The notes below the pieces were generated by a model that did not search any database, was not told where the DNA came from, and worked only from the letters and a program-made list of their open reading frames with translations. Both the position numbers and the translations under genes were made by a program. From Thermoplasmatota archaeon (GTDB lineage: Archaea > Thermoplasmatota > Thermoplasmata > UBA10834), in the NCBI GenBank assembly GCA_018814355.1, contig JAHIZT010000124.1, forward strand, positions 479 to 64,478: a stretch of DNA of 64,000 nucleotides, in the 5' to 3' direction. The number at the start of each line of letters is the position of its first letter. The first letter of the stretch is position 1. Positions 5,662 through 64,000 of the stretch are shown here, piece after piece.

Positions 5662-6174
5662 CTAGTTGATATAGCTGGCCGTGCTCGACCTGTCGAACCC
5701 TTTCACCAGTTCCAGCTGGTAATCTTCCTGAGGCTGCCAACCGTAGACCGGGTAGACGAGCTTCGGGACGAACCTTGAAAGGTCGGCTGCGAACTGCGTG
5801 ACCGGGTGGTCCTTGCCGAAGGTGGAGGCGCTTATCTCGTACGCCTTCGCCCTAGTGGCCGTCTCGTCGATTATCCCCAGCGTGTGAAGATACTCGTGCA
5901 GCAGTATGTGGAACACGTAAGGTTTGTACAGCGCGGGATCTGTCTCCTTTATCCGTCTCAGGGGGAGGCTGTTCATCACGATTATGTTGGTGGCGACCGG
6001 GTAGAACGCACCTACGAACCCCTGCGGCCCCCCGCCCAGGTTCGCAAGGCCGAGCATCAGCCCCGCCCTCTCCTTTCCAGTGCTTCTCCTGACCACGCTC
6101 TTCACAAGCTCGAAGATGTCCGTCAAATCCTTCGCGGACTTCAGTACCTCATCAACTGATGTCTCTGGTTTCAC
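5662..6174 (-). CDS. Putative minimal zinc metallopeptidase-like protein (HExxH motif: HILLHEYLHTLG)
   Basis: 170 aa with an HEYLH motif followed by GIIDE. Family assignment is uncertain and would need an HMM search. Confidence 0.4.
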   Translation of the reverse strand: MKPETSVDEVLKSAKDLTDIFELVKSVVRRSTGKERAGLMLGLANLGGGPQGFVGAFYPVATNIIVMNSLPLRRIKETDPALYKPYVFHILLHEYLHTLGIIDETATRAKAYEISASTFGKDHPVTQFAADLSRFVPKLVYPVYGWQPQEDYQLELVKGFDRSSTASYIN

Positions 6175-6276
6175 GGGTGACTATTGGGCGTTCGATGCTT
6201 ATAGACACATCGCCTGACAGACAGATGCCTATTGAAGGCGAGGTTTGGACAATGCTGAAATACCGACCAGGGCTCT

Positions 6277-7443
6277 TTGGCACTCGTGCGAACAGAGGTG
6301 CTGGTCGTGGGCGGGGGTCCCGCAGGCTCGACTGCTGCGAGACTCCTGGCAAGAGATCATGATGTTGTCATAGCTGAGGAACACCACGCTCCAGGCGAAC
6401 CGCTCCAGTGCGCTGGTCTGGTGACTCAGAGGGGTGTACCGATGTTCTCCAGGGAGAGCGTCCTTGGAGAGGTCAGGGGCGTCAGGATCCACTCCCCCCT
6501 CGGGTTCATGCTCACTCTTGAAGCTAGGAGCTCGCGCGCGTATGTGTTGGACAGAACGCTATTCGACAGGATCATGTTTCACAAGGCAGTGGACGCCGGC
6601 GCTGTGCCCAAGGTGGGCGCATGCATTAGGTCCGTCGCGGACCATGGACATGAGGTTCGTTCCGAGATGCGGGCCGATGGAATGACGGAGTCGGTGAACT
6701 CGAAGATCGTGATTGGAGCCGACGGCTATAAGTCGATTTGCAGGAAGGCGTCGCGGCTCCCGCCTCCAAGGCACATGCTCACAGGCATACAGGTGGACCT
6801 GAAGGGCGTGGAGGCGGATCCCGAGTTCGTCGAGATCTATCTTGGAAGGGATGTTGCGCCAGGGTTCTTTGCATGGACGATTCCAGCAGCCGATCTGGTA
6901 AGGGTGGGCCTGTGCACCTGGGATGCGGGGGACATTCCGGCGATGTATCTCAAGAGACTCTTAGCTAGGCCGCAGTTCAGGCACGCAAAGAAGGTCTCGA
7001 CGGCTTCTGGGAAGATACCTTTGGGTGCTGGCAGGTCAGCCGTGAGCGGAGGCATAATGCTTGTCGGGGATGCCGCCTGCCACGCGAAACCCCTGTCTGG
7101 CGGAGGGGTCTACACGGGGGTGAGGGGAGCGGAGCTCTGCGCAGATGCTGCGGGCATGTTCCTGGAATCCCGTGGCAGGACATCTCTTGCCGAGTATGAC
7201 TCTCTATGGAAGGACGAGTTCGGGAAGGAGCTCTCAAGGGCGTTCAGGATCAGAAAGGTCTTCCTGAACCTCACGGACAAGAAGATAGACAAAGCCCTGA
7301 GGATCTTTGCTCAGCCGGGCGTGAAGAAGCTCTTAGAGCAGAAGGGAGACATCGACTACCCAACCTCGATCTCTTCATCTGTCCTCAGACTTGTCCCGAA
7401 GCTCGCGCAGTTTTCCCCTCAGATAATAGAATCTCTGCTCTAG
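6277..7443 (+). CDS. FAD-dependent geranylgeranyl reductase family protein (digeranylgeranylglycerophospholipid reductase-like)
   Basis: N-terminal dinucleotide-binding motif VLVVGGGPAGSTAARLLA, the segments IGADGYKS and LVGDAA, and ~390 aa. The start is TTG at 6277 or GTG a few codons in. Confidence 0.8.
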   Translation: MALVRTEVLVVGGGPAGSTAARLLARDHDVVIAEEHHAPGEPLQCAGLVTQRGVPMFSRESVLGEVRGVRIHSPLGFMLTLEARSSRAYVLDRTLFDRIMFHKAVDAGAVPKVGACIRSVADHGHEVRSEMRADGMTESVNSKIVIGADGYKSICRKASRLPPPRHMLTGIQVDLKGVEADPEFVEIYLGRDVAPGFFAWTIPAADLVRVGLCTWDAGDIPAMYLKRLLARPQFRHAKKVSTASGKIPLGAGRSAVSGGIMLVGDAACHAKPLSGGGVYTGVRGAELCADAAGMFLESRGRTSLAEYDSLWKDEFGKELSRAFRIRKVFLNLTDKKIDKALRIFAQPGVKKLLEQKGDIDYPTSISSSVLRLVPKLAQFSPQIIESLL

Positions 7444-8184
7444 CTTCGGGTATCTGCCCGGGTTGTCTAGGACGTAGAAATAGAGCGCTGCAAACGAGAG
7501 ACCACCGATGCTTCCCACGAGCACGGCCAGGGGCCATCTCGGTATGGGGATCTTGATCCCGAAGGAAGAGTCCGGAAGCAACCCGTCCACACCTATCGAC
7601 TTGAGGTAGGTCGTGTTCACAATCGGATCTCCGGACGAGAACGAGACAGCAGTGTTCCATTGTTCGTCCGTGAAGAAACCTCTTGACTTGAGCACCACCT
7701 GGGTACCGGTCGGGGAGCTGAACGTCAGATTGAACCGCACGAAGTACGTGCTCTGTGAAAAGTAGGAACCGTGTGGCGTCTTTCTGGAGGTTTCGATCGG
7801 GAGATCCACCCTTGTCGTCGTGTTCGCGCCTATTCTTGGTAGGAAGATCGAAAGTTGGATCGAGTCCCCTCTGATCAACGGAGGATGCGGAAAGGTCGAT
7901 GTGACATTCTCCGTCTTCTCCTGGGTCGAGTAGCGATATATGCCCACAACGAGCGTGAAATCGATCATCACCTCCGGTGAATCGTTATCGTAATAGGGGT
8001 TGGTGAAGTTGAACGAGAAGTCCACGGTCGTCCCCGGGGACACCACAGGCGTGATGAATCCGCTCAGGATGCTGTTAGCGTACTTCGGGCTGCCGGGGTT
8101 TGTGGGGAATTCGGCCGATGCGAGGCTCGTGCAGATCAGCAGTGCGGAAACAAGAGCCGTCGATGTGGCCAGCACGAGTCTCAT
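7375..8184 (-). CDS. Secreted/surface protein: signal peptide, beta-rich body with many N-glycosylation sequons, C-terminal TM anchor and basic tail
   Basis: N-terminus MRLVLATSTALVSALLICTSLASA. Sequons NFT, NDS, NVT, NTT and NLT. C-terminal hydrophobic helix PLAVLVGSIGGLSFAALYFYVL followed by a KR-rich tail. The 3' end overlaps the convergent GGR gene by 69 bp. Confidence 0.5.
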   Translation of the reverse strand: MRLVLATSTALVSALLICTSLASAEFPTNPGSPKYANSILSGFITPVVSPGTTVDFSFNFTNPYYDNDSPEVMIDFTLVVGIYRYSTQEKTENVTSTFPHPPLIRGDSIQLSIFLPRIGANTTTRVDLPIETSRKTPHGSYFSQSTYFVRFNLTFSSPTGTQVVLKSRGFFTDEQWNTAVSFSSGDPIVNTTYLKSIGVDGLLPDSSFGIKIPIPRWPLAVLVGSIGGLSFAALYFYVLDNPGRYPKLEQRFYYLRGKLRELRDKSEDR

Positions 8185-10986: not shown

Positions 10987-11715
10987 ATGAGCGCCGAAGA
11001 TGACTCCGCCAGAGGCTACGTCAAAGGGTTTCAGGAGGGCCTCCAGGAGGCTTGGGACGAGATAATCAAGCTCTCCACGAAAGGCTACACCTCCAGAGAA
11101 CTCCAGATCATGGCCAAGACGAAGAGATCGATGCTCTTCCAGAAGGTCCAGCAGAAGGTGGACGAGCTCGAAAGGGCCCTCGGCAGGAAGTTGTCGGTCC
11201 CGGATGTGGCTTCACATGCCCAGCCGGCGCAGCCAGTCCAGTTGATATCTGGCTGGAGCTATGTCATCAAGGAGGAGAGGCCTGAGAAGAGTTTCGCCCT
11301 GTTCACTGCTCTCATCGCCAAAGGTGGAAGGGGACTGTGCATCTCGCGGACCCATCCTGACACTCTGAAGCAGAAGTACAAGTTCGAGGCTGAGGCGCTC
11401 TGGCTCACGAAGACAGAGACCGCCCAGCCAGCGGCCGGCGCCAAAGGTGTCGAATACGTTTCCCCCAACAACCTTGCGCATCTAGCGTCTGCGATCAGGG
11501 AATTCTTCGCGAAGGGCCCGGACGGGGCTGTCATAATCGAAGGGCTCGAGTACCTTACGACTCAGAACGATTTCAGAAGCGTCCTCAAGTTCATACAACT
11601 GATAAACGAGCAGGTCGTTCTCGACAAGGGATATCTGTTTGTACCTGTCGATGAGGCGACGATGGACCCGAAGGACTTCTCATTGATTGAACGAGAGATG
11701 AGCCAGGTGCTCTAG
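10987..11715 (+). CDS. DUF835-family archaeal protein with an N-terminal coiled-coil region
   Basis: C-terminal half carries the DUF835-like signature SYVIKEERPEKSFALFTALIAKGGRGLCISRTHP...AVIIEGLEYL. The N-terminus is a charged helical region. Confidence 0.6.
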   Translation: MSAEDDSARGYVKGFQEGLQEAWDEIIKLSTKGYTSRELQIMAKTKRSMLFQKVQQKVDELERALGRKLSVPDVASHAQPAQPVQLISGWSYVIKEERPEKSFALFTALIAKGGRGLCISRTHPDTLKQKYKFEAEALWLTKTETAQPAAGAKGVEYVSPNNLAHLASAIREFFAKGPDGAVIIEGLEYLTTQNDFRSVLKFIQLINEQVVLDKGYLFVPVDEATMDPKDFSLIEREMSQVL

Positions 11716-12401: not shown

Positions 12402-13085
12402 ATGGACGCACCCAAGGGTAAGTCGAGCGCTGCGGAACTCACAAGGAAGTATATCGATCGCCACCCCAGCATACGGGACTGCATCAGCAAGGATCTGGTG
12501 AACTACTCTTCCCTCTCGCGTCTCATCATGAAGGAGCTCGGGGTGAAGAACGAGGAGGCGGTGCTCGCAGCGAGCCGCAGGTACGCCATGAAGCTCGCCA
12601 AGACCGACTCCGAGGGCGCCATCATGGACCTCCTGGAGCGCAGCAGGCTCGAGCTCAAGACGAAGATATGCATCGTCGCGGCGAAGAACGAGTGGATCGT
12701 GCTCAAGAACCTCGAGGATGTCGTCAAGAGGCTCTTGGCGGACAAGAGCACTATGCAGGTTCTCCAGAGCGCGAACGCAATCACCGTGATCTCGGAGGAC
12801 AGGCATCTGTCCGCGATTGTGAAGGCGATAGGCCAGGACCATATCATAAGCGTCAAGGAGAACTTGGCAGAGATAACGGTCAAGAGCTCGCCCGCGATAG
12901 AGGAGACTCCCGGCGTTTTCGTTTATATGATGGGCATGCTCTCAGAGCAGGGCATCAACCTTCTGGAGGCTGTGAGCTGCTACACGGACACGATCTTCAT
13001 AGTCAGCAGAGAGGACATGATGCGCGCGTTCGACATACTCTCATCATGCATCGAGGACAAGATGGTCCCCGAGAACTCGAGTTGA
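12402..13085 (+). CDS. ACT-domain containing regulatory protein (amino-acid binding), adjacent to argH/argG
   Basis: 227 aa. The C-terminal ~80 aa resembles an ACT fold (VFVYMMGMLSEQGINLLEAVSCYTDTIFIVSREDMMRAFDILS). The N-terminal helical domain is of unknown function. Confidence 0.55.
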   Translation: MDAPKGKSSAAELTRKYIDRHPSIRDCISKDLVNYSSLSRLIMKELGVKNEEAVLAASRRYAMKLAKTDSEGAIMDLLERSRLELKTKICIVAAKNEWIVLKNLEDVVKRLLADKSTMQVLQSANAITVISEDRHLSAIVKAIGQDHIISVKENLAEITVKSSPAIEETPGVFVYMMGMLSEQGINLLEAVSCYTDTIFIVSREDMMRAFDILSSCIEDKMVPENSS

Positions 13086-13088
13086 GTT

Positions 13089-14537
13089 TCAATCCAGAAG
13101 TTTGTCGACTGCCGAGATCTGCTCCCTCAGCCTCTTGAGGACAGCCTTGTTCTCATTGAGCGCGGATACCGCCTTCGCCATCTGCTTCGAGACGGCGCCC
13201 TTCGATGTCCCGCCCTCGCTGCCCCTCCTCTCGACGGCTCTTTCGACCTTGAGGAAGTTCAGGTCCGAGGTCCTCAGATCCTTCTTGTTCTTCAGCAGGA
13301 CCTCGTTCGCCAGCCGTATGAACTTCTTATCGTCACCGTCCGCATGCATGGCCAGCTCCTTGACGATGCCGTGCGCGCTCCTGAAAGGTATCCCCAAGGT
13401 TGTGAGGAGGTCGGCGAGGTCGGTCGCGGTCATCAACCCAACCTCTGCCGCCCTCCTCATCCTCACCCTGTCGAACTCGATCTCTCTCAGGAAGTCTGTG
13501 AGGGCATGGAGCGAAGCCTCAACGGTGTCGAAAACATCGAAGAGGTTCTCCTTGTCTTCCTGCAGGTCGCGGTTATATGCGAGGGGAAGAGATTTCATCA
13601 GGGTGAGGATCGCGACTAGGTCACCGACTGCTCTGCCGGATTTCCCTCTGACGAGTTCCGGTAGGTCGGGGTTCCACTTTTGGGGCATCATGCTGGAGCC
13701 GCCGGACAGGTCTTTCGGGAGCTTCAAGAACCCGAACTCGCGAGACGACCAGTAGACCAGCTCCTCGCAGAGCGACGAGAGATGTATCATGAGCAGGGAG
13801 AGAGAGAACGCGGACTCAGCGACGAAGTCCCTGTCGGAGACGGAATCGATGGAGTTCTCCGTGATGCCGTCCAGGCCGAGCATGTCAGCGACTGACTTCC
13901 GGTCGATCTTGTGCCAGACGCCTGCGAGAGCCCCCGACCCGAGGGGAGATACGTTCGTTCTGGAATAGCAGTCGAACATGCGTGATATGTCTCGCTCGAG
14001 CCTCCAATAATGAGCAAGCAGATGATGGGCCAGCAGTATCGGTTGCGCATGCTGGACATGCGTGTATCCGGGCATGATGGCTCCGGCCGCCGCCCTTGCG
14101 CGCAAGACGATGGTCTGCTGGAGTTCCAGCGCCGCGGAGACTGAATCGAGCAACGCTTCTCTGACGAACAGCCTCATGTCAAGGGCGACCTGATCGTTCC
14201 TGCTCCGACCGGTGTGCAGCTTCGCGCCGGCTTCGCCGATTCTGTCCGTGAGCGCGCGCTCCACATTCATGTGAATGTCCTCAAGCTTCGGGTCAAGGGC
14301 CAGCTTCCCCGTCCTGATGTCGTCGGCTACCCCTTTCAGGCCATTCTCAGTCAGCTTCAGCTCTTGTTTGGATATCACGCCCGCGCCCGCCAGGGCGTGC
14401 GCGTGCGCTATGGAGCCAGCTATGTCGTACTTCCAGAGCCTTCGGTCGAAATGGACCGAGGCCGTGAAATCGAGGAACGCATCATTTGCAGACTGTGACC
14501 GTCTCCTCGTTGACCGCGATCTCGTTCGCTGTTCCAT
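13089..14537 (-). CDS. argH: Argininosuccinate lyase
   Basis: 482 aa, with the fumarate-lyase signature GSSMMPQKWNPD, SRNDQVALDMRLFVRE and the N-terminal DIAGSIAHA. Confidence 0.95.
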   Translation of the reverse strand: MEQRTRSRSTRRRSQSANDAFLDFTASVHFDRRLWKYDIAGSIAHAHALAGAGVISKQELKLTENGLKGVADDIRTGKLALDPKLEDIHMNVERALTDRIGEAGAKLHTGRSRNDQVALDMRLFVREALLDSVSAALELQQTIVLRARAAAGAIMPGYTHVQHAQPILLAHHLLAHYWRLERDISRMFDCYSRTNVSPLGSGALAGVWHKIDRKSVADMLGLDGITENSIDSVSDRDFVAESAFSLSLLMIHLSSLCEELVYWSSREFGFLKLPKDLSGGSSMMPQKWNPDLPELVRGKSGRAVGDLVAILTLMKSLPLAYNRDLQEDKENLFDVFDTVEASLHALTDFLREIEFDRVRMRRAAEVGLMTATDLADLLTTLGIPFRSAHGIVKELAMHADGDDKKFIRLANEVLLKNKKDLRTSDLNFLKVERAVERRGSEGGTSKGAVSKQMAKAVSALNENKAVLKRLREQISAVDKLLD

Positions 14538-15762
14538 TGCCGCTCTCTCCCGCCTTCACCATGCTGGCGACCTTCAGGGGCAACCCCCACACATAGATGA
14601 ACCCCTTCGCAGCGGAGTGGTCGAACTCATCCCCTTTGGCGTATGTCGATAGTGAATTGCTGTACAACGAGTACGGAGACTCCCTGCCCACGACGACCGC
14701 GCTGCCTTTGAACAGCTTCAGCTTGACCGTCCCGGTCACGAGCTCCTGGGTCTTGTCGATGAACGCGTCCAGAGCCTCCTTGAGCGGGGAGAACCAGAGG
14801 CCGTTGTAAACGAGCTCCGCATAGTGCTGCTCGATTCCCTTCTTGTAGTGCAGCAGGTCCTTCGTCATGACCAGGCTCTCGAGGTCTTGGTGGGCCTTGA
14901 TGAGCACGACCGCCGCAGGTGCCTCGTAAACCTCTCTCGATTTGATCCCGATCAGACGGTTCTCGATGTGGTCTATCCTGCCTACCCCGTTGTTGCCCGC
15001 GATCTCGTTCAATTTCCTTATGAGATCTAGGAGGTCGATATTGGCTCCGTTCAGGCTCACTGGGTTGCCCTGGACAAAGCCGATCTCGACGTACTCAGGG
15101 GCGTCAGGGGACTTGTCTATCCCCTTGGTCCATTCGAAGATGTCCTCTGGAGGCTCGACCCACGGATCCTCGAGGACTCCGCATTCGATTGCTCTGCCCC
15201 ATATGCTTTCATCTATGCTGTACGGTTTCTCGACTGAGACGGGAATCGGGATGCTGTGCTCATTCGCATAGACTATCTCCTCCTCCCTCGACATCTTCCA
15301 GTCCCTTGTCGGGGCTAGTATGTCCAGGTTGGGGGCGAGCGCCATGATTGACACTTCGAACCTGACCTGGTCGTTGCCCTTGCCCGTGCAGCCGTGGGCA
15401 ATGGCAGTCGCATCCAGTCTCTTGGCCATCTCGACGAGTTTGGCGACCATGAGAGGTCTCGCGATCGCGGTCCCGAGCGGGTAGTTGCCTTCGTAGAGGG
15501 CGTTTGCCTTCAATGCTGGTAGAACGTAGTTCTCGACGAACTCCTTCTTCGCGTCGATGACCCACGCCTTGGATGCGCCTATGCTCTTGGCCCTCCTCAT
15601 CGCGTCCTTGAGGTCGTCCGATTGACCGACGTCTATGGTCACGGCGACGACTTCGTAGCCGTACTTCTCGTTCAGCCAGTGGATAGCCACTGACGTGTCC
15701 AGGCCGCCTGAGTACGCGAGCAGGATCTTATCCTTCTGTTTGCCTTGAGCAGCGCCTTCCAT
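14482..15762 (-). CDS. argG: Argininosuccinate synthase. The true start is probably MEGAAQGKQKDKILLAYSGG, 44 codons inside the listed ORF.
   Basis: PP-loop AYSGGLDTS, the segments NDQVRFE and GRIDHIENRLIGIKSREVYE, ~426 aa. The 3' end overlaps the argH start by 56 nt out of frame. Confidence 0.95.
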   Translation of the reverse strand: MEGAAQGKQKDKILLAYSGGLDTSVAIHWLNEKYGYEVVAVTIDVGQSDDLKDAMRRAKSIGASKAWVIDAKKEFVENYVLPALKANALYEGNYPLGTAIARPLMVAKLVEMAKRLDATAIAHGCTGKGNDQVRFEVSIMALAPNLDILAPTRDWKMSREEEIVYANEHSIPIPVSVEKPYSIDESIWGRAIECGVLEDPWVEPPEDIFEWTKGIDKSPDAPEYVEIGFVQGNPVSLNGANIDLLDLIRKLNEIAGNNGVGRIDHIENRLIGIKSREVYEAPAAVVLIKAHQDLESLVMTKDLLHYKKGIEQHYAELVYNGLWFSPLKEALDAFIDKTQELVTGTVKLKLFKGSAVVVGRESPYSLYSNSLSTYAKGDEFDHSAAKGFIYVWGLPLKVASMVKAGESGNGTANEIAVNEETVTVCK

Positions 15763-15979
15763 GGTCTGCCGCCTCCTAGCATTCGAAACTAGTGTGCGTA
15801 TTTGGCCGTGGTGACATCGAGTGAACATCGTCCGATGAACGATGTCCAATTTGCGACAAGAACACTTCTCATCTCTGACCTGCGATTGGACCACGTTCTG
15901 ATTGTCTGGCTAGTTTGCGACAGTCCATCAGCCTTAAGTAGACCGAGAATATTACTATTCAGTACAACAGGAGAGCCAC

Positions 15980-16344: not shown

Positions 16345-17118
16345 ATGCCTGTGCCTCGAGCTGACGAATACCACTCTTTTGAACGCGAGATTGACAAGTG
16401 GCGTATGCGCCGCAAGGACACAAATGATAGGAAGTCGTACGATGAGGTGTTCGACCAGCAGAACCTGATGATCATCTACAAGCTGCTGTCAGATGGTGTT
16501 TTCGATAAGCTCGACTTCCCAATATCCACGGGCAAGGAGGGCAATGTCTACCGTGCCTCAACGAAGGATGGCCAGCTAGTGGCCGTGAAGATATACAGGA
16601 CGGCCACATCGACATTCAAGGACATGGCCAAGTACGTCCATGGAGACCCCAGGTTCGGCGGTCTCACAAACAACAAACGGAAGCTGATCTACGCCTGGGC
16701 AAACAAGGAGTTCCTGAACCTGAAGGCGTTCGCAAGGGCAGGCGTCCGAGTGCCCAAGGCAATAGCTCAGACGAAGAACGTAGTCGTCATGGAATACATT
16801 GGCGATGAGAACGAACCGGCACGTGAGCTGAGGAACGTCAAGCTCGAGGACCCGGAACCTGTCGCCAGAAAGATCCTGGACTACCTCAGGCTGGCGTACA
16901 AGAAGGCCAGGCTTGTGCACAGCGACATCAGCGAGTTCAACATCCTTATGCCGAGCGAAGAGCCGGTCATAATCGATGTCGGGCAAGCAGTCCTGCTGGA
17001 CCATCCGACCGCCCAGGAATGGCTCGAGCGAGATGTGGGCAACGTCGTAAGGTATTTCAAAAAGCTCGGTGTAATCCTGGACGTCAAGAAGGAGCTCGAG
17101 GTGATCAGGAAGCAATGA
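16345..17118 (+). CDS. rio1: RIO-type serine/threonine protein kinase (Rio1)
   Basis: Motifs STGKEGNVYRA, VHSDISEFNIL, IIDVGQAV. Conserved synteny with aIF1A upstream and the KH protein downstream. Confidence 0.85.
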   Translation: MPVPRADEYHSFEREIDKWRMRRKDTNDRKSYDEVFDQQNLMIIYKLLSDGVFDKLDFPISTGKEGNVYRASTKDGQLVAVKIYRTATSTFKDMAKYVHGDPRFGGLTNNKRKLIYAWANKEFLNLKAFARAGVRVPKAIAQTKNVVVMEYIGDENEPARELRNVKLEDPEPVARKILDYLRLAYKKARLVHSDISEFNILMPSEEPVIIDVGQAVLLDHPTAQEWLERDVGNVVRYFKKLGVILDVKKELEVIRKQ

Positions 17119-17657
17119 TCCAGTCCGTCAAGGTCCCAACGGAGAGAGTAGGGGTGCTCATCGGCAAGAGCGGCGAGACGAAGGAGTTCTTGGAGAGGCG
17201 GGCAGGGGTCAAGATATCAATCGATTCTGAAGAGGGTGATGTCGAGATCGATTACACTCACGCCAAGGACCCGGCCATGGCACTGGCCGTGGTGAACGTG
17301 GTCCAGGCGATCGGAAGAGGGTTCGCTCCTTCCAAGGCGATCAAGCTCCTCGAGGACGAGTACTTCCTCGAGATATTCGACATCAGGGACTATGTCGGGA
17401 AGAAGCAGGAGCACGTAATGCGCATGCGCGCGCGGGTCATCGGCACCCACGGGAAGACGCGTGCGATCATCGAAGAACTCACGGGTGCCTTCGTGTCTGT
17501 CTATGGGAACACGGTCGCCGTCATAGGGGATGCGCTGCAGATCGATGTCGCCCACAGGGCCCTCGACATGTTGCTATCAGGCTCGGAGCACGCGGCCGTG
17601 TATCACTACCTCGAGGGCAGACGGGCACAGCTCAAGGTCGAAGGCATGGGCTTCTGA
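17115..17657 (+). CDS. KH-domain RNA-binding protein (aDim2/Pno1-like). The start is MIQSVKVP, overlapping the rio1 stop by 4 nt.
   Basis: Two KH-like GxxG segments (IGKSGETK; IGTHGKTR) in ~180 aa. Conserved neighbour of Rio1 in archaea. Confidence 0.75.
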   Translation: MIQSVKVPTERVGVLIGKSGETKEFLERRAGVKISIDSEEGDVEIDYTHAKDPAMALAVVNVVQAIGRGFAPSKAIKLLEDEYFLEIFDIRDYVGKKQEHVMRMRARVIGTHGKTRAIIEELTGAFVSVYGNTVAVIGDALQIDVAHRALDMLLSGSEHAAVYHYLEGRRAQLKVEGMGF

Positions 17658-17718
17658 AGTTCTGAACACGCACTATTGGTTCTGTTGCGATATCGGGTGA
17701 TGACCCTTAGGTCACGTC

Positions 17719-18925
17719 TCAGATGCAACTCGTTCCATTCGGCTCCGACCGTGCGGCCATCGCTGGCTCGTATAGGATCATCATCACGTCATGCTGGAAC
17801 GCGCCGGGGTCGAACCGTAGACCCCCTGCCATCCCGTTGGAGATGGCTATCTGCAGCAGGTTGATGCTGGCATTGATGTGCCTGTCGAGGTGCCAGCCGC
17901 AATCACATACGAACTCTGTGCCCATTCGGGAATCTTGTATTCTCCCACATGCCGGGCACTTTCTGCTGCTATATCTTGGATCGACTTTGACGACAGGGAT
18001 ACCCTTCCACTGGGCCTTGTATTCGATGATCTGGTGTAGCTTCCTCCTCGGCCACAGGCTGAGGCGACGATTCATATCCTTGCCCCTTTTGTACCGGATT
18101 CCTATAAGGTCCTCGAGTACCACAACCGACCTCTTGCTCTCGGCAAACGAGAGCACGGCGTTTGCCACCTCATGAAGCCTGTGCTCGATCCGGTGGTGCT
18201 CTCTTGTGCCTTCCCGCCTACACAGGTTTCTAGCAGTCTGCCTGTCATGCGCCTTCTTCTTCTGCAGCCTTCTCCGCCTGTCGTGGTGCCGCTGCTGTAT
18301 GATGGCTACGTCAGGGAATTCCGCCTTGACCGTAACCGCTGCTTCAGAGTGGTTGCCGACGAACACGCCATCCAGGCTCCTTTCATTAGTATCTAGAGAA
18401 AGGACCGACTCGGGGATGTATGGTGCAGGGCACCCTTCCTGAAGGCTACTATGACCCGATCTGGAAGTATGGTCAGCGATCCGAGGGAGTGCGTGTTGTC
18501 ATCCAGGTACTTCCGATGATACTGGCTTACTACGAGATTCAATTTTACATGGCAACCCGCCCTTATGGGAAGGTCGATGGTTCCGGACTCACGATCGAGC
18601 TCTACGCCTGGTTCTCTGCTTTCATCATGAGGCGTTTGACATAGGGAACTTTGCACGCAACGCCTTTGCGAATGCGCCTGCGATGGGTCCTAAGAATGCC
18701 GCCAGCTACTTCGAACGCTGATACAAGATGCTGGGAGTACATCTTCGGATGTTCTTGGCGGAATTCCTTGTACGCGATTCTACACAAGGCGTTTCTCGAT
18801 GTCACTCTCGCCTGGAGGCCGGCTCGGATCGCATTGTTGACGGCCAATCTGAAATCCTCAAGCAGGGACTTCGCTTCCGATGGAAGGTCCGTGTCCAGTC
18901 GGAAGACGGCTCCCTTGATTAGCAT
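17719..18925 (-). pseudogene. tnpB: TnpB (IS200/IS605-family OrfB, RNA-guided nuclease-like) relic split into three reading frames by at least two frameshifts. No tnpA is present.
   Basis: Fragment 18602..18925 carries a TnpB N-terminus. Fragment 18393..18656 carries the central IDLPIRAGCHVKLNLVVSQYHRKYL. Fragment 17719..18366 carries the RuvC-like region plus zinc finger (VVVLEDLIGIR...RLSLWPRRKLHQIIEYKAQWKGIPVVKVDPRYSSRKCPACG...CDCGWHLDRHINASINL). Read in one orientation, this is a single ~400-aa protein broken by two shifts. Confidence 0.75.
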
Positions 18926-49887: not shown

Positions 49888-50298
49888 TCACTTGTCCTTT
49901 TCCTCTTCGAACTTGAGCGCTGCAGAGTTGATGCAGTATCTCTGTCCTGTCGGAGCTGGCCCGTCGTCGAACAGGTGTCCGAGGTGACTTCCGCATTTGC
50001 TGCACAGTACTTCGGTTCTTCTCATGAATAGACTCAAGTCGAGCTTGAACTCCATCTTCTCTTCGTCTTTGGGTGCGTAGAAGCTAGGCCAGCCGCAGCC
50101 TGCATCGAACTTCGTTTCGGATATGAAAAGCTCGTTTCCGCAGGCGGCGCACTTGTAGACCCCTTCCTTCTTGTTGTCCACATACTCACCAGTGAAGGGT
50201 CTCTCGGTCGCCTTCTGCCTTAGGACTCTGAATTGGTCTGGAGTCAATGTCTTCTTCCATTCCTCGTCGGTCTTCTTGATCTTGATCATCGTTGCCAA
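49888..50298 (-). CDS. msrB: Peptide methionine-R-sulfoxide reductase MsrB
   Basis: CAACGNELF...CGWPSF...[17 protein letters not shown], with the SelR zinc and catalytic Cys motifs. Confidence 0.9.
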
Positions 50299-50432
50299 GC
50301 CAGCGAGCTATGTAGTTTAATCATTTCCCCGATAGGCTGCGCCCTCGGAACAACTGTAGTCCTGATGGCCAGATCGAGCTCGATCCGATTCGTACGGTCC
50401 CAGCCATGATGACTGAGTCGGCCGCTCGGCCC

Positions 50433-50990
50433 TCAGTTCTTGTTCATCCCGAATTCCTCGTAGCTCAGGATCTCGTCCATCTTCTTCCTGTTGCGCGATC
50501 TCGCGACTTTCGCGGTGAGGTCCAGCTTCTCTCTAGTGTATCCGACCGCGAGCATGGCGACGATTCTGAGCTCCTCAGGAACCTTGAGAGCCTTCCTTAC
50601 CCTATTCTCGTAGAAGCTGCCTATCCAGCATGTGCCCAGACCTTCCGCAGTCGCAGCGATGACCATCTGCTGCATCGCGATCGTCACATCGATCACATTC
50701 CATCCAGGAGATTTCTTCTTGTTCCCGCACCCGACTATGACGACAGGTGATTCTGTGAGGAACTTCGCCCATTTCCCGTCCGATAGCGCCTTCCGCCTCT
50801 CAGGGTCTTTGACCACGATGAAATGCCACGGCTGTATGTTGGAGGCAGACGGAGCGATCCTTCCCGTCTCAAGTACCTTCATCAGGACATCGTCCGGCAC
50901 CGGCCGGGAATCATACGCTCTCACTGACCTTCTCCTCTCAATCGCCTCGAAGACTTCCAAATCTAACACACTCCTCAGCAGAGGCGGCAA
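50433..50990 (-). CDS. Nitroreductase family protein
   Basis: RRSVRAY...PSASNIQPWHFIVV, characteristic of the FMN-dependent nitroreductase fold. Confidence 0.8.
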   Translation of the reverse strand: MPPLLRSVLDLEVFEAIERRRSVRAYDSRPVPDDVLMKVLETGRIAPSASNIQPWHFIVVKDPERRKALSDGKWAKFLTESPVVIVGCGNKKKSPGWNVIDVTIAMQQMVIAATAEGLGTCWIGSFYENRVRKALKVPEELRIVAMLAVGYTREKLDLTAKVARSRNRKKMDEILSYEEFGMNKN

Positions 50991-51454
50991 TGAGCAAGGC
51001 CGCGCTTCTGCAGATATTGCTGATGATAATCCTCCGCCCGGTAAAACTCCTTTGCGGTCACGATTTCCGTAACGATGCGCTTCTTATTGAACCGGTCCGA
51101 GCTCTGGAGTTTGTCCCGGGAGGCTATGGCGGCTGTCTTCTGCTTTTCGTCATGGTAGAATATGGCTGACCTGTACTGCGAGCCGAAGTCGGGGCCCTGC
51201 CGGTTCGGTGTTGTGGGGTCGTGCGACTCCCAGAAGACCTTGAGCAGGTCCTCATATGACACCACTGATGGGTCGTATTCCACCTGCACGACCTCTGCAT
51301 GGCTCGTCTTGTCCGTGCACACTTCCTCGTAGGTTGGATTCCTTGTGGTCCCTCCTGTGTATCCAACGGTCGTCGACCTGACCCCGTTGACCTTTCGAAA
51401 AGCCTCTTCGACTCTCCAGAAACAGCCCGCTGCGAACGTGGCTCGCTCAGTCAT
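50975..51454 (-). CDS. msrA: Peptide methionine-S-sulfoxide reductase MsrA
   Basis: ATFAAGCFWRVEEAF (GCFWC-type active site) and GYTGG...TDKTSHAEVV. Confidence 0.9.
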   Translation of the reverse strand: MTERATFAAGCFWRVEEAFRKVNGVRSTTVGYTGGTTRNPTYEEVCTDKTSHAEVVQVEYDPSVVSYEDLLKVFWESHDPTTPNRQGPDFGSQYRSAIFYHDEKQKTAAIASRDKLQSSDRFNKKRIVTEIVTAKEFYRAEDYHQQYLQKRGLAHCRLC

Positions 51455-51773: not shown

Positions 51774-52544
51774 GTGGGGGACCATATGATAGAACCGAAA
51801 CGCGCGATTGTCCGTGAACCAGGGAAGAACTACACACAGTGCATTTCCTGTCATCGCTTGAGAGACACCATAGATATGGTTCTTGTCAGAGAGCAGCACG
51901 CCCGTTACAGAAAGACACTCACTGACCTGGGCCTGGAAATCATATCCGTCCCGCCGGACGACGGGCACGCGGATGCGTGCTTTGTGGAGGACAATGCTGT
52001 AGTCCACGGCAAGAAGTCGTTGATCTGCCGTATGGGGGCAGAGAGCAGGCGCGGAGAGGAGAGCGCTATCGAGGAGGTCCTGAAGCAGTATGTCAGAACG
52101 AAACGGGCGACGACTCCCGCGACTGTCGAAGGCGGGGATGTTGTGCACTTCAACGATCGGCTGCTTAGCGGTGTCAGCGAGCGAACGAACCAGGAAGGCG
52201 TTTCACAGATGAGAAAATGGCTCGAGGTCAGAGTTGATACGATTGTGGACCCCGGGATCATGCACCTGAAGAACTACGTTACGTCATTGGGCAGGGACAC
52301 GGTGATATCGACACAGAGATACGCCAAGCACGTCGCACTTAGGGATCTGTCTGCAATCATAGTCCCCGAGGACGAGGAGTACGCAGCCGACACGCTCACA
52401 GTCGGAGATACGGTGATCATGCCCGCGGGCCGCCCGCGTGCGCTGGAGCTAGTCTGCAAAGCTGGGTTCAAAGTCGTCTCAATGGACATGAGCGAATTCG
52501 AGAAATGCGGTGGAGCTTTGACATGCTTGTCGCTTCTTCTGTAG
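51774..52544 (+). CDS. Amidinotransferase-superfamily enzyme (dimethylarginine dimethylaminohydrolase / DDAH-like)
   Basis: C-terminal catalytic motif EFEKCGGALTCLSLL (the nucleophilic Cys is the penultimate conserved C), central His/Asp regions, ~250 aa. Confidence 0.7.
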   Translation: MGDHMIEPKRAIVREPGKNYTQCISCHRLRDTIDMVLVREQHARYRKTLTDLGLEIISVPPDDGHADACFVEDNAVVHGKKSLICRMGAESRRGEESAIEEVLKQYVRTKRATTPATVEGGDVVHFNDRLLSGVSERTNQEGVSQMRKWLEVRVDTIVDPGIMHLKNYVTSLGRDTVISTQRYAKHVALRDLSAIIVPEDEEYAADTLTVGDTVIMPAGRPRALELVCKAGFKVVSMDMSEFEKCGGALTCLSLLL

Positions 52545-52607: not shown

Positions 52608-52757
52608 CTAGTGCTTCACCCAGCCGTTGGCCTCTTCGTGATGGTAGAGTTCCATACCGCAACGTGCGCAATAACTGTCCTTGTGTTCGTTGTGAGCTCC
52701 ACAATGAGGGCATCTCGTAGCAACCACTTCCGAGATGAGATTCTCTGTGGAGGTCAT
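52608..52757 (-). CDS. Small zinc-ribbon protein (49 aa; CPHCG...CARCG), not in the supplied ORF track
   Basis: The minus-strand translation MTSTENLISEVVATRCPHCGAHNEHKDSYCARCGMELYHHEEANGWVKH has two CxxCG knuckles with a 9-aa spacer. Confidence 0.4.
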   Translation of the reverse strand: MTSTENLISEVVATRCPHCGAHNEHKDSYCARCGMELYHHEEANGWVKH

Positions 52758-52895: not shown

Positions 52896-54299
52896 TTGGC
52901 GTGGGAGGTGAGCGCGATGGTACAGATACTCGATGTCATGGAGAAGGCCTTGACAGGTCTGCCTCTGAGCGAAAACGACTACCAGCTCAGGAGGTTCGCC
53001 CCGAAGGTCCAGGAGAAAGTCAGGGAATTCAAGATCAGGTACGACCCAGAGAACCCGGTCCCGAGCGACAACTCCCTCGCGGACGATCTCTTCGAGGCCG
53101 GTTTGGAGCTGTTGGTTGATGTGGGCGCTTATTGCATAGACAGCGGTAGAGTGATCTCGTTCACCGAATCGGAGGTAAGGACCGCTCTCAGGAACGCTCC
53201 TGACAGACTCGAGATGGGCGAGGGTAAGGATAGGAAGACCTTCATGCCAAGGAAGATCGGGGACAGGACGAAGCCATGGTGCCTATTGGGCGCCGCCGGA
53301 GGAGCGGTCTCCGGTGATGAGGCGTTCGCGACTCTAATGGAAGGTTACGCTGAGATACCCGAGGTCGATGCCATCACGACGCCAGCCTTGACGCGCGTGG
53401 GCGGAATGAGGATCAGGCCGAGGTCTCCCCTTGAGGTTCTGGGCGCAATGAGGAGCGCAGCGCTGGGCCGGGAAGCGTGCAACAGAGCAGGCAGACAGGG
53501 CATTCCGTTCATGAACACTCTCTCCACAGCGGAATCCGCCATCGCTCTTGCGGCTGCGATGCATCCCAAGTACGGCCTGAGGCCATCGGACGGCTTCATG
53601 ATTGCGAGCATGGACCCGATGAAGATAGATTTCGACAGGCTGAACAAGGTCACGGTGGCCTTGTCGATGGGTGCTCCAATCGGCATGGATTTCGCCCCTC
53701 TCATGGGTGGATATTCAGGCGGACCCGAGGGGACTGCCGTCACGACCGTCGCGAGCCATATGATGGGCCTACTGACCCTTCAGACGAGCTATCTGATACC
53801 GTTCCCGCTACATCTGAAGTACGTCTCGAACAGCAGCAGGGACATGCTTTGGATCATAAGCGCGATGGGCCAGGCGATCAGCAGGAACACCCACCTGCTC
53901 AGCCTGAGCCTGAACTACACAGCTGCGGGTCCGGCCACGCCCATGGTCCTTCAGGAGACCTCGGCTTCTGCGATTTCGGCAGTAGCATCTGGGCTCTCAG
54001 TCGAGTCAGTAGGCGCGGCGCAGAACAAATACGAGGACAGGATGTCGCCTGTCGAGCCAAGAATCTCTGGCGAGGTGGCGCACGCAGTTGCGGGGATCAA
54101 GCTGCAAGAGGCAAATGAGATTGTCAAAAGCCTATTGAAGAAGTACGAGAAGAAGCTCCCGAATCCACCTCTGGGAAAGACGCTCTGGGAGTGCTGGGAT
54201 TCTGAGAAGCGGAGGCCCACCAAGGAGCATAGCGCGGTCGTGAGGAAGTTCAAGAAGGAGATGCTGGACCTAGGAGTGGAGCTGAGGCCTGAGGAATAG
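52896..54299 (+). CDS. Monomethylamine methyltransferase MtmB-family homolog lacking the pyrrolysine (UAG) codon
   Basis: Collinear similarity to MtmB: DDLFEAGLELLVDVGAYCIDSGRVISFTESEV vs EKLFKAGFEMLLECGIYCTDTHRIVKYTEDEI; MGGYSGGPEGTAVTTVASHM vs FGGYAGGIEETTIVDVATHI; and the C-terminal GKTLWECWD vs GKTFQECYD. At the Pyl position (AGRPGMGV-O-GPETSLS), this protein has AGRQGIPFMNTLS: a 3-aa deletion and no TAG. Confidence 0.75.
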   Translation: MAWEVSAMVQILDVMEKALTGLPLSENDYQLRRFAPKVQEKVREFKIRYDPENPVPSDNSLADDLFEAGLELLVDVGAYCIDSGRVISFTESEVRTALRNAPDRLEMGEGKDRKTFMPRKIGDRTKPWCLLGAAGGAVSGDEAFATLMEGYAEIPEVDAITTPALTRVGGMRIRPRSPLEVLGAMRSAALGREACNRAGRQGIPFMNTLSTAESAIALAAAMHPKYGLRPSDGFMIASMDPMKIDFDRLNKVTVALSMGAPIGMDFAPLMGGYSGGPEGTAVTTVASHMMGLLTLQTSYLIPFPLHLKYVSNSSRDMLWIISAMGQAISRNTHLLSLSLNYTAAGPATPMVLQETSASAISAVASGLSVESVGAAQNKYEDRMSPVEPRISGEVAHAVAGIKLQEANEIVKSLLKKYEKKLPNPPLGKTLWECWDSEKRRPTKEHSAVVRKFKKEMLDLGVELRPEE

Positions 54300-55431: not shown

Positions 55432-56205
55432 TCATCTCAAAGTTCCGCCGAACACCTGCCACGCGAGGGCGCTCTTTGCCGTGAGGCTTAGGATGATGTA
55501 CACTCTCTCGCCGAACAGGTAGTCCTTCCATCTGCCCTTTCCTCTGTACTGCAGGATCATGTTGATGGCGAAGATGTTGAAGAATATCGCGAGGGACACG
55601 AAGATGAAGTACACGAATGTCGGAACCGCATCTGACGCGGTCAGAAGCGCCCCAAAGAAGTACAGGCCCAGAACGATCCAGCATATGAGTCCCGCGAACG
55701 AACCGAAGATAAAAGCCGTCCAGTTGGTCTTTTTCGTTGTCTGGTTGTGTAGTTCCATCATGAGTCCGAACAGGTTCATGGTGGCGTTGAGCGCGAAGAT
55801 CAGTATGAGGCTCGAAAGCTCGTAGATGCCGCACAGGGCCGCGATGACCACTATCATGATGGATGAGCTGATGGCGTATTCGTACCATCTTGCATAGTTG
55901 ATGCCCCTCTTCAGATTCCGCACGTACCAAGAGTAACCGTACGTGGACACCGAGAAGTGAGCAATCGCGGAAACGAACAGAAACATGGCAATCATCGGTC
56001 CGAGTCTCAGGTTGATGATCGTGTTCGTCACCGTGGTGAAGGCCTGATTCACGGCGTCATAGCCAAGCAGGGTCTCTTTGACCGGCACCGAGTACTTGTT
56101 GCTCAACCAGAGCATCAAGCCACCTTGAAACAGGTGGAGAAACCCCATCACAAGGTTGAACCTCTTCAGCTTTTCGAACTTGACTTCTTCCGTTGCATCT
56201 GCCAT
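55432..56205 (-). CDS. Heliorhodopsin (7-TM retinal protein). The start is MADATEEVKFEKLKRFN, and there is a GAGGAG SD 9 nt upstream.
   Basis: Close collinear match to heliorhodopsin 48C12: FNLVMGFLHLFQ vs FNRIAGVFHLLQ; RWYEYAISSSIMIVVIAALCGI vs RWVEYSLSSSVMIVLIAQICGI (counterion Glu conserved); C-terminal RGERVYIILSLTAKSALAWQVFGG vs RGERAYIVLSLVAKSALAWQIFSG (Schiff-base Lys conserved). Seven hydrophobic segments. Confidence 0.85.
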   Translation of the reverse strand: MADATEEVKFEKLKRFNLVMGFLHLFQGGLMLWLSNKYSVPVKETLLGYDAVNQAFTTVTNTIINLRLGPMIAMFLFVSAIAHFSVSTYGYSWYVRNLKRGINYARWYEYAISSSIMIVVIAALCGIYELSSLILIFALNATMNLFGLMMELHNQTTKKTNWTAFIFGSFAGLICWIVLGLYFFGALLTASDAVPTFVYFIFVSLAIFFNIFAINMILQYRGKGRWKDYLFGERVYIILSLTAKSALAWQVFGGTLR

Positions 56206-57410: not shown

Positions 57411-58999
57411 ATGGGGGTCTGTTCCCTTTTATCTACACGTAGGACGTTTTCTTTAGTCGGAGGGTCGGTCGCTCGGCCCGGATCCTCCAAGAAAGGAGAT
57501 GCGAACTTGGTCTCTGGGAAGAGCATGGTGAGGATTCTTGACAAGAGCGATCTGGAAGCGGTCCACGGAGCCACAATGAGAGTCCTGGACGATGTTGGAG
57601 TGAAGATCGATTCCCCCGAAACCCTCGACCTCCTAGTGAAGAACGGGTTCGAGGTCGACAGGAAGTCCAAGATCGTGAGAATGCCGGAGTCAAAAGTCAT
57701 GGAAGCAGTCAATAGCTGCAGAAAGAACTTCAAATGGCACGCTCGCAACGAGAAGCATTCTATCGACTTTGTGGACGGAAGGACCAAGTTCGGTCCTGGA
57801 GCGCAGTGCCTGTACTACATCAACCTGATACCGAGCGCGTGAGGGCGGCCACTCTTCAGGATGGCATCAGTATCTGCAGACTCTTGGACGCGCTCGACTC
57901 GTCTGCCCTGGGCTACATCCCTGTGTATCCGAGCGATGTCCCCGTCCCAGCAATGAGCGTCGTCATGTGGGCCGCGGGCCTCGTGAACTCATCCAAACCT
58001 GCCTTTGGCGGCGGGGGAGGTGAATCCGAGTTCGAGTTGATGTTGCGGATCGCAGACATATTCCTAGGGGACCGGGAGCTTCTGAGGACGAAGCCGATGT
58101 TCCCCGGATACATCGACCCGATAAGTCCGCTCGGACACGATCAGGGAATGCTCGAGACGCTCCTCCGGTACTCCGAATGGGATCTTCCGATGTTCATAAT
58201 GGTCATGGCCCTTGCCGGCGGGACAGCTCCCGCATCTCTTGCCGGTCTTCTAGTGCAGCAGAACGCAGAGATCCTGAGCTCAGCAGTGATAGCCAAGTGC
58301 GTCACGAAGGCTCCAAAGATCGTCTACGGCTCTGTATCCTGCCCTCTGGACATGAGGTCGGGCATTGCGTCGACGGGCTCTCCTGAGTTCTCTCTCATAG
58401 GCGTCGGATCCGTCCAGATGGCCAAGTTCTACGGGCTTCCGAGCGACATTGGGGTTCAGAGCGATTCGAAGACTGTGGACGCACAGACATCCTATGAGAA
58501 GATGCAGGCCGCGCTGATGGCGACCATGTCCGGTGCCGATTTCGCAGAGCTTTTCCTCGGCTCGACCGAGACCTTCAACGCATATTCGCTGGTCCAGCTC
58601 ATGATCGATGACGAGATAGCCTCATATGTCCAGCGGATCTCCGACGGGATCGAGGTCAATGAAGAGACGTTGTCAGTGGACGTTATCGCAAAGACGGGCC
58701 CTCTCGGGAACTACCTGAAGCACCCTAGGACCATGAAGCAGTTCAAACGGGAGCATTCGCAGGCGAGGCTCTCTGATAGGACCACCAGACGACACTGGAC
58801 CGCTGGCGGAGCCAAGGATGTCAAGGAACGTGCAAGGGAGCGCGCGGCTAACCTGTTGAGATCTCATACGCCTGACCCACTCGAGCCAGATATGAAGAAG
58901 AGCCTGAATGGCCTGATCAGGGAGTACACCAAGGACTACGATGTGGACAAGCTTGGCGGCTCAAGTCCCCAGGCCAGGTCAGAATCGTCCTGCTCTTGA
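57411..58999 (+). pseudogene. MttB-superfamily (trimethylamine methyltransferase-like) homolog, non-pyrrolysine, split by a -1/+2 frameshift near 57828-57842
   Basis: Frame-0 part: ILDKSDLEAVHGATMRVLDDVGVKIDSPETLDLLVKNGFEV...IVRMPESKVMEAV matches the MttB N-terminus. Frame-2 continuation RVRAATLQDG...GSVQMAKFYGLPSDIGVQSDSK aligns with MttB [16 protein letters not shown] but has CAG (Gln) where MttB has TAG (Pyl). The two ORFs are offset by 323 nt. Confidence 0.7.
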
Positions 59000-63102: not shown

Positions 63103-63165
63103 TTCAGAAAAGAATAACTACGCTGGTCGTATTCAGAGTCCGAGCCCATAGTAGGGGAGATGTCG

Positions 63166-64000
63166 ATGAGGAAGATCGAGCGCATGCGAATCAGAGAGCT
63201 GTTGGCGAAGGAAGAGAAGCAGTTCGTGAAGGAGCATCCTCGGTCCAAAGCGCTCTTCAAGAGGGCGAAGTCAGTCCTGTTGGCTGGCGTACCCATGCAC
63301 TGGATGACCAGATGGGCCGGCCCGTACCCGATATTCGTCGAAAGGGGATGGGGGAATCATGTTCTCGATGTGGATGGACATGAATATTTGGACTTCTGCC
63401 TCGGAGACACAGGCTCGATGTTCGGACACTCTCCCAAAGCCGTGGTTGACGCCGTAACGAACCAGGTCAGGAACGGCATCACGATGATGCTGCCGACGGA
63501 GGACTCGATATGGGTGGGGGAGGAGCTGGGTCGGCGGTTCGGCCTTCCCTATTGGCAGATGGCGATGACCGCGACAGATGCCAATAGATACTCCATCAGG
63601 TTGGCACGCGAAGCCACGGGAAGGAAGAAAGTGCTCGTCATGAGCGGCTGCTATCACGGGTCCGTCGACGAGGCGCTGGTCACTCTCGAGAAGGGCAAGA
63701 TGGTCTTGCGGAGCGGAAACAAGGGAGCGCCCGTCGACCCGGTACTGACCACGAAGGCTGTCGAGTTCAATGATGTCAAAGCCTTGGAACGGGCACTGAG
63801 GCCGGAGGATGTTGCGTGCGTGCTGGCAGAGCCAGCAATGACGAACCATGGGATCATACTTCCCGACCCCGGCTATCACGATGAACTGAGGAAGTTGACT
63901 CGCAAGCACGGGACTCTGCTCATCATGGATGAGACCCACACACTATGCTGCGGGATTGGAGGGTACACAGGGGAGTATGGACTTGAGCCGGACATGATGA
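63166..64000 (+). CDS. Class-III aminotransferase-fold PLP enzyme resembling glutamate-1-semialdehyde 2,1-aminomutase, 5' partial (runs off the window end; not in the ORF track)
   Basis: My translation from the ATG at 63166: MRKIERMRIRELL...FVERGWGNHVLDVDGHEYLDFCLGDTGSMFGHSP...LVMSGCYHGSVDEAL...AEPAMTNHGIILPDPGYHDELRKLTRKHGTLLIMDETHTL. No stop before 64000. Confidence 0.75.
   Translation, partial: MRKIERMRIRELLAKEEKQFVKEHPRSKALFKRAKSVLLAGVPMHWMTRWAGPYPIFVERGWGNHVLDVDGHEYLDFCLGDTGSMFGHSPKAVVDAVTNQVRNGITMMLPTEDSIWVGEELGRRFGLPYWQMAMTATDANRYSIRLAREATGRKKVLVMSGCYHGSVDEALVTLEKGKMVLRSGNKGAPVDPVLTTKAVEFNDVKALERALRPEDVACVLAEPAMTNHGIILPDPGYHDELRKLTRKHGTLLIMDETHTLCCGIGGYTGEYGLEPDMM

Follow-up and report, generated by a model that had tools for sequence, protein, structure and literature searches.

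What can an enzyme of the monomethylamine methyltransferase (MtmB) family do without the catalytic pyrrolysine (Pyl) of MtmB? This question is raised by a single gene in a 64,000-nt stretch of DNA from a Thermoplasmatota archaeon (contig JAHIZT010000124.1, positions 479 to 64,478; this whole stretch is called the window). The window was located on contig JBDRHC010000036.1 (85.8 kb) of the Thermoplasmata metagenome-assembled genome (MAG) GCA_043817215.1, and "the same assembly" below means that MAG. The gene is a genuine, intact and full-length Pyl-free member of the MtmB family. On balance we favour the view that its product is a corrinoid-dependent, Pyl-independent first methyltransferase (MT1) for a methylated nitrogen substrate, and that its corrinoid protein is encoded elsewhere.

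The reading frame, its fold and the pyrrolysine site

The open reading frame (ORF), called at 52896..54299(+), is uninterrupted and carries no in-frame stop. It opens at an in-frame TTG (52896), and the true start is probably the ATG 21 nt downstream (52917), because translation from this ATG gives a 460-aa product identical to the protein annotated in the NCBI record GCA_043817215.1, because a length of about 460 aa is typical of its relatives, and because GGAGGTGA lies a few bases 5' of it. The protein matched the Pfam family MtmB (PF05369) with residues 9-460 on profile positions 1-449 of 450, at 317.6 bits (gathering cut-off 25) and an E value of 1.7e-94, which is full-length membership; the NCBIfam profile search gave no matching model. 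HMMER aligned it collinearly with residues 10-456 of MtmB from Methanosarcina barkeri (1L2Q; E 1.4e-70), and the identity is 32% over 447 residues. An AlphaFold2 model built on 40 relatives (predicted local distance difference test score 88.7, predicted template modelling (TM) score 0.91) was matched by Foldseek to 1L2Q, 1TV2 and 1NTH with TM scores of 0.92-0.94 and a root mean square deviation of 1.8-2.0 Å over about 455 columns. The predicted fold is that of the MtmB TIM barrel, and the next-best matches, MttB and MtgB, reached TM scores of only about 0.5. An earlier note on this DNA, made from the letters alone, had described the protein as full length and collinear with MtmB, and in this it was right.

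Against the orthologue at locus L008 (96% identical), the ratio of non-synonymous to synonymous substitution rates (dN/dS) was 0.034 at a dS of 0.60. More distant relatives, at saturated dS, gave values of 0.06-0.13. Judged by these ratios, the gene is under strong purifying selection.

At 53496-53537 the translation reads QGIPFMNTLSTAES, and the MtmB counterpart is GMGV-Pyl-GPET. Pyl202 of MtmB stands opposite Met199 (ATG, 53511-53513) in the HMMER alignment and in two MAFFT alignments, and Asn200 is one residue extra relative to MtmB. The earlier note had quoted the two motifs (GIPFMNT and GMGV-O-GPET) correctly and had seen that ordinary codons, here ATG-AAC, replace the UAG; the 3-residue deletion that it placed at this site is in fact the 1-residue insertion of Asn200. 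No in-frame UAG, as in canonical MtmB, stands at the Pyl202 position, and the ATG found there is conserved in the clade: of 65 clade sequences, which come from independent assemblies, at least 97% keep Met199-Asn200. Because of this conservation, the possibility raised in the earlier note that an assembly error hides a TAG is excluded on comparison of sequences.

Two candidates that seemed to bear on this site were rejected. P0143 starts at query position 199 and for that reason was first taken as a Pyl-containing close relative, but it opens with this Met-Asn motif and is a truncated non-Pyl sequence. The P0320 group, taken as the nearest non-Pyl kin of Pyl-containing MtmB, also has 202-aa and 244-aa pieces in its cluster and probably represents read-through calls of Pyl genes; true Pyl-MtmBs are stored in databases as C-terminal fragments of about 250 aa.

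In comparison with M. barkeri MtmB (1L2Q, 1NTH, 1TV2), the window protein shares PF05369, the TIM barrel, His300, Tyr335, the GGY motif and Pro262. Unlike MtmB, it has Met199 and the inserted Asn200 in place of UAG/Pyl, with Glu229, Gln333 and Glu259 changed to Met, Leu and Asp; its gene has no adjacent mtmC, and it comes from a Thermoplasmata archaeon that is very probably no methanogen. In the alignment, M. barkeri MtmB and all of its closest relatives have Glu259. A literature search on the role of MtmB Glu259 found nothing, and the roles of the glutamates are read here from observed conservation alone. The residue pairs and the features of the locus are collected in Table 1.

Table 1. Features of the window around the MtmB-family gene, with residue pairs given as MtmB residue to window residue
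Feature	Position	Strand	Basis or remark
Non-Pyl MtmB-family gene, clade A paralogue	52917..54299	+	460 aa; ORF, Pfam, PDB, model, dN/dS
ATG-AAC (Met199-Asn200) at the MtmB UAG/Pyl position	53511..53516	+	Translation and alignments
MtmB Glu229 to Met228			Alignment
MtmB Gln333 to Leu332			Alignment
MtmB Tyr335 to Tyr334			Alignment
MtmB His300 to His299			Alignment
MtmB Glu259 to Asp258			MAFFT; HMMER instead pairs Asp258 with MtmB Asp258
Dimethylarginine dimethylaminohydrolase (DDAH) family-like gene	51786..52544	+	NCBIfam and PDB matches; upstream of the MtmB-like gene
Zinc-ribbon ORF (CPHC...CARC), 49 aa, in the DDAH-MtmB spacer	52608..52757	-	ORF; not called in the NCBI record
MttB-superfamily gene in two frames, apparently through loss of one base near 57818	57411..58999	+	Pfam MTTB on both pieces
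Intact non-Pyl MttB-superfamily gene, 519 aa	61543..63102	-	Pfam MTTB, E 7.9e-67
Class-III aminotransferase, leaving the window end, divergent from the intact MttB	63160-64000	+	Side observation

Family, host and paralogue clades

When 1.84 billion cluster representatives were searched with the window protein, matches at E <=1e-3 came from 984 clusters (50% identity), and 223 of them reached E <=1e-30. Among the representatives listed, nearly all are full length and the residue in the Pyl column is highly variable. The best full-length representative outside its own clade is 42% identical, and the named members of the nearest clusters (40-42% identical) are Bathyarchaeota, a Thermoleophilia bacterium and an unclassified bacterium. 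In a neighbour-joining tree, built without bootstrapping, a single group on a long stem unites the Thermoplasmata sequences, apart from M. barkeri MtmB and its near relatives and inside a sub-family with Asn directly after the Pyl column. The closest outside relative examined, from Thermoleophilia (40% identical), is encoded in an operon in the order corrinoid protein, MtmB-like protein, MttB, aminotransferase and AFOR (contig L077, 7345-16452; the aminotransferase is Aminotran_3).

The first non-Pyl MtmB homologue with a function is MtqB, which acts on tetramethylammonium and choline with its partner MtqC and was published in March 2026 (PMC13044021). The same paper gives a tree of 1,061 sequences, in which the clades besides MtqB have no known function (PMC13044021). 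A non-Pyl MtmB-superfamily protein also shows the strongest induction of all proteins when 'Ca. Formimonas warabiya' grows on dichloromethane (PMC9768040). The earlier note had regarded non-Pyl MtmBs as far less studied than non-Pyl MttBs; the group is large and already known, as the clusters and the published tree show, and MtqB has its sole assigned function. The window enzyme adds a member to this known group, which is poorly characterised, and is not a new kind of system.

Pus10, ribosomal protein L15e, PCNA and a family-B DNA polymerase mark the window as archaeal. In a pattern scan of GTDB species, each represented by one genome, 69 related loci came up, and every one lies in a MAG assigned to Thermoplasmata, 'Thermoplasmatota' or 'Methanobacteriota', including RBG_13_57_23, RBG_19FT_COMBO_56_21, UBA10834 and UBA9653. 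Some are published non-methanogenic MAGs, whose clades are reported to lack methyl-coenzyme M reductase (MCR) and pyl genes and to lie basal to Methanomassiliicoccales, and the genus COMBO-56-21 is placed in Ca. Gimiplasmatales (PMC11264602); the order-level placement of the window's own MAG is our inference. Within the window there are no pyl genes and no tRNA-Pyl, the Rfam scan giving a tRNA only, and TAG is not avoided as a stop codon (it terminates 10 of the 44 window genes). The host is very probably not a methanogen, as the earlier note had thought possible, with 69 of 69 loci in Thermoplasmata MAGs, some of them from the clades reported without MCR and pyl genes. The gene 'mtmB' is already listed as a methylamine gene in Ca. 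Gimiplasmatales and neighbouring clades by a paper whose main text never mentions pyrrolysine (PMC11264602).

Genes were called in the loci, the neighbours were clustered, and both were mapped on a tree of 65 sequences, which fall into clade A (27 sequences, including the window gene) and clade B (38 sequences, 64-72% identical to the window protein). Many genomes hold one copy of each. Thirty of the clade-B loci have a corrinoid protein of about 215 aa immediately upstream on the same strand, with a gap of 4-7 bp or an overlap; it carries GDVHEIGKN and the Pfam domains B12-binding_2 and B12-binding. Other common clade-B neighbours are a divergent PAS/GAF/HATPase sensor, DUF835, a HAD hydrolase, MttB and an SBP_bac_5 ABC transporter, and the loci of two genomes additionally have a Pterin_bind gene and a second corrinoid protein. 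When the Pterin_bind methyltransferase was searched with tblastn, the only matches were in L007/L037 and L040. DUF835 follows the clade-B gene in 17 loci.

The same assembly contains such a locus on contig JBDRHC010000043.1 (L079), with the sensor, the corrinoid protein P0458, the clade-B protein P0058, DUF835, the HAD hydrolase, MttB and the ABC transporter. P0458 has 215 aa, PF02607 and PF02310, and the DVHEIG motif, so a DxHxxG corrinoid protein, of the kind that the earlier note proposed to look for as a partner, exists in the genome, on another contig and beside the clade-B paralogue. P0058 begins 4 bp behind the corrinoid gene and resembles the window protein in length (460 aa), in sequence (72% identity) and in Met-Asn at the Pyl column. 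It differs in its place directly behind a corrinoid gene, in the other neighbours just named, and in Cys230, Cys231 and Cys258, which correspond to Ala, Ser and Asp of the window protein. In the corrinoid-protein search, the matches listed (at least 120) were all clade-B partners with at least 80% identity. The L079 locus also has DUF835 copies at 12500-13078 and 16904-18178 and, as an insertion that separates the sensor gene from those of the ABC transporter, a pair of IS605-type TnpA and TnpB genes (5979-7581).

Across both clades (65 sequences), 144 of the 460 positions are at least 97% conserved. Conserved motifs lie on most predicted strands (WCLLGA 121-126, ITTP 153-156, FMN 198-200, GGY 264-266, PF..H (PFPLH) 295-299 and LNY 332-334), which points to a common chemistry of the two clades. 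Nine positions are fixed differently between clades A and B: 141 (M/V), 230 (A/C), 231 (S/C), 258 (D/C), 288 (L/Y), 292 (Y/W), 294 (I/L), 305 (N/S) and 331 (S/N). With pocket membership assigned by strand positions in the DSSP string of the AlphaFold2 model, seven of the nine fall on or beside the C-terminal halves of barrel strands: positions 230, 231, 258, 292, 294 and 331 lie on the strands 226-231, 255-259, 292-295 and 328-334, and position 288 closes the helix just ahead of strand 292-295. So the substrate probably differs between clade A and the corrinoid-linked clade B, on a shared chemistry. Cys230, Cys231 and Cys258 are near-invariant on adjacent barrel strands in clade B (for example L079 10653-12035 and L027 4036-5418). 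Methanol methyltransferase MtaB carries a zinc site, and by analogy the cysteine trio could be a possible metal site.

The DDAH-like gene upstream of the window gene is a recurrent neighbour of clade A. Its product matched the NCBIfam dimethylargininase models at E 1.4e-52, with a score of 178.9 that is below the equivalog cut-off of 340, and it aligned over its full length with DDAH of Pseudomonas aeruginosa (3RHY/1H70; residues 10-254) at E 1e-40. In this alignment the active-site Cys and His motifs of DDAH are paired, ...TCLSL with ...SCMSL and MHLK with LHLK. A DDAH-like gene is the immediate same-strand upstream neighbour in 13 of the 27 clade-A loci, mostly with a gap of 7-74 bp; in the window and in L008 the gap, counted to the start of the ORF, is 351-355 bp. 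Four clade-B loci also have one, at a distance of about 2.8 kb upstream. From methylarginines, DDAH enzymes set free citrulline and either mono- or dimethylamine. For this reason the pairing with an MtmB-family gene is suggestive, and it hints at methylamines freed from methylarginines.

Proposed function and competing explanations

In the reading that we favour, the Pyl-independent TIM-barrel enzyme would serve as the substrate-specific MT1. A methylated nitrogen compound would be bound in a pocket with Met199/Asn200 instead of pyrrolysine, its methyl group would be transferred to the Co(I) of a small corrinoid protein of MtxC type whose gene lies outside the window, for example on JBDRHC010000043.1, and then to a pterin carrier (tetrahydrofolate or tetrahydromethanopterin), not to coenzyme M. 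The corrinoid linkage of clade B and the precedent of MtqB argue by analogy for corrinoid dependence in clade A as well. Pyl-free relatives of another methylamine methyltransferase offer a similar case: the non-Pyl MttB superfamily (MtgB and others) acts on other methylated amines with a corrinoid protein and a pterin methyltransferase, although it belongs to another family (PF06253) and its fold match is distant (TM about 0.5).

Several observations weigh against this reading. None of the 27 clade-A loci has an adjacent corrinoid gene, and in the pattern scan the two complete chromosomes CP070748 and CP070736 showed only a clade-A copy. No corrinoid protein, pterin or coenzyme M methyltransferase or activase was found among the scanned window ORFs of at least 150 aa, and tblastn for Pterin_bind found none in the window either. 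There was no MT2 and no RamA-type activase in the scanned window ORFs or in L079, RamA not having been searched genome-wide. In the window, a spacer of 372 bp that holds a minus-strand ORF separates the DDAH-like from the MtmB-like gene. Their adjacency also sits in a wider syntenic block between the window and the CP0707xx genomes (PKD, ABC, AFOR, TauE ... MttB, peptidase M28), and because of this synteny it may in part be inherited gene order and not functional coupling.

The strongest competitor is that the window enzyme is a quaternary-amine methyltransferase of the MtqB type, acting on tetramethylammonium, choline or a related betaine, whose fixed charge would make pyrrolysine needless. 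We regard this as possible but unlikely. MtqB resembles the window protein as a non-Pyl member of the MtmB family and shows methylation of a corrinoid protein to be within reach of this scaffold even when pyrrolysine is missing; as the only characterised homologue, it has a quaternary-amine function and a pocket described as rich in sulfur-containing and aromatic residues (PMC13044021). The window protein would suit such a pocket with Met199 for Pyl202, Met228 for Glu229 and Leu332 for Gln333, and with Phe198, Met232, Phe259 and Tyr292 on the same strands. Non-Pyl MttB genes, the usual quaternary-amine enzymes, occur close by in 19 loci, and the window itself has two. However, the acidic Asp258 is kept in clade A at the Glu259 column, for which a quaternary amine has no obvious need. 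MtqB is encoded beside MtqC in a methanogen (Methanococcoides methylutens Q3c) and is placed near the Pyl-encoding MtmBs (PMC13044021), whereas the window clade has no adjacent corrinoid gene and lies elsewhere in the neighbour-joining tree, a separation that is judged indirectly, from the published placement of MtqB. The window protein is also only 32% identical to M. barkeri MtmB, and its nearest neighbours are the sequences of Bathyarchaeota and Thermoleophilia at 40-42%.

It is rather improbable, in our estimate, that the enzyme is a Pyl-independent monomethylamine or dimethylamine:corrinoid methyltransferase fed by DDAH, or a direct methylarginine demethylase. This explanation draws on the DDAH-like gene with aligned Cys/His motifs directly upstream in 13 of 27 clade-A loci and farther upstream in the four clade-B loci, on the retained Asp258, and on the small monomethylamine activity that MtqB has without Pyl (PMC13044021). 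Half of the clade-A loci, however, have no DDAH-like gene nearby and yet identical pocket residues, the adjacency is subject to the same reservations about synteny and spacing as above, and Glu229 and Gln333 of MtmB are replaced. Our literature search found no paper linking DDAH with corrinoid methyltransferases. To our knowledge, all characterised monomethylamine, dimethylamine and trimethylamine methyltransferases use pyrrolysine, which also counts against it. If it were true, non-methanogenic archaea would activate simple methylamines independently of Pyl, and protein-derived methyl groups would enter one-carbon metabolism.

A decaying or non-catalytic paralogue without a corrinoid partner, or a TAG lost as an assembly artefact, is already disfavoured and very improbable: the missing corrinoid neighbour in clade A and the frameshift in a neighbouring MttB gene would fit decay, but the low dN/dS values, the complete gene in each of 27 clade-A loci, which stem from independent assemblies, the invariant strand-end residues and the ATG conserved throughout at the Pyl column speak against it.

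Other neighbouring genes and significance

Two MttB-superfamily genes lie downstream of the MtmB-like gene in the window, and an MttB gene is within 10 kb of the MtmB-like gene in the 19 loci mentioned. In the split copy the frame switches between ...LYYINL and DTERVRAAT..., with aac ctg at acc where relatives read L-D-T, and in the public record it is annotated as two separate genes (111 and 397 aa). It is either a pseudogene or an assembly error, and it may be part of the same methyl-transfer metabolism as the MtmB-like gene. The intact copy aligned with M. barkeri MttB (7XCL) at E 1.6e-57, with Leu opposite Pyl334. Its pairing with a class-III aminotransferase gene recurs as MttB and Aminotran_3 in the Thermoleophilia operon on L077.

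The 49-aa zinc-ribbon ORF in the DDAH-MtmB spacer is 80% identical at the same place in L008. A similar zinc ribbon forms the N-terminus of divergent genes of 260-290 aa at this spot in L011, L013, L046 and L048, which cluster with the PAS/GAF sensors upstream of clade B. The small ORF may be a remnant or relative of this zinc-ribbon/sensor-like gene of other clade-A loci.

Further genes were observed around the locus. An MsrB-nitroreductase-MsrA trio (49888-51454, -) lies upstream of the DDAH-like gene, and MsrA/MsrB or nitroreductase recur by the clade-A genes in L004, L008 and L012-L014. A heliorhodopsin gene (55432-56205, -; Pfam E 6e-96, NCBIfam HeR above cut-off) is found two genes downstream of the MtmB-like gene, and heliorhodopsin is also within a few genes of the clade-A copies in L004/L005, L011 and L013. 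Argininosuccinate lyase and argininosuccinate synthase (13089-15894, -), which lead from citrulline to arginine, are encoded at a distance of about 37 kb from the DDAH-like gene; they could reuse the citrulline that its enzyme would release, with no evidence of linkage. The window also has a DUF835 copy distant from the MtmB-like gene (10987-11715, +) and a TnpB-like ORF with a Cas12f1-like TNB domain (17719-18366, -).

With 984 clusters at 50% identity matching the window protein, non-Pyl MtmB homologues form a numerous group in which a function has been assigned to just one member, and the clade described here is confined to abundant Thermoplasmata of sediment and soil. Genome surveys read its gene as 'monomethylamine methyltransferase' and infer methylamine use, which is unsafe because the catalytic pyrrolysine is absent. 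A new substrate specificity of the window enzyme is a candidate, with quaternary amines and DDAH-derived methylamines as the concrete options. The split into two paralogues, the nine discriminating positions, which lie mostly on barrel strands, and the recurrent DDAH neighbour give handles for finding the substrate, and they also bear on the kinship of the Pyl-dependent and Pyl-independent branches of the family.

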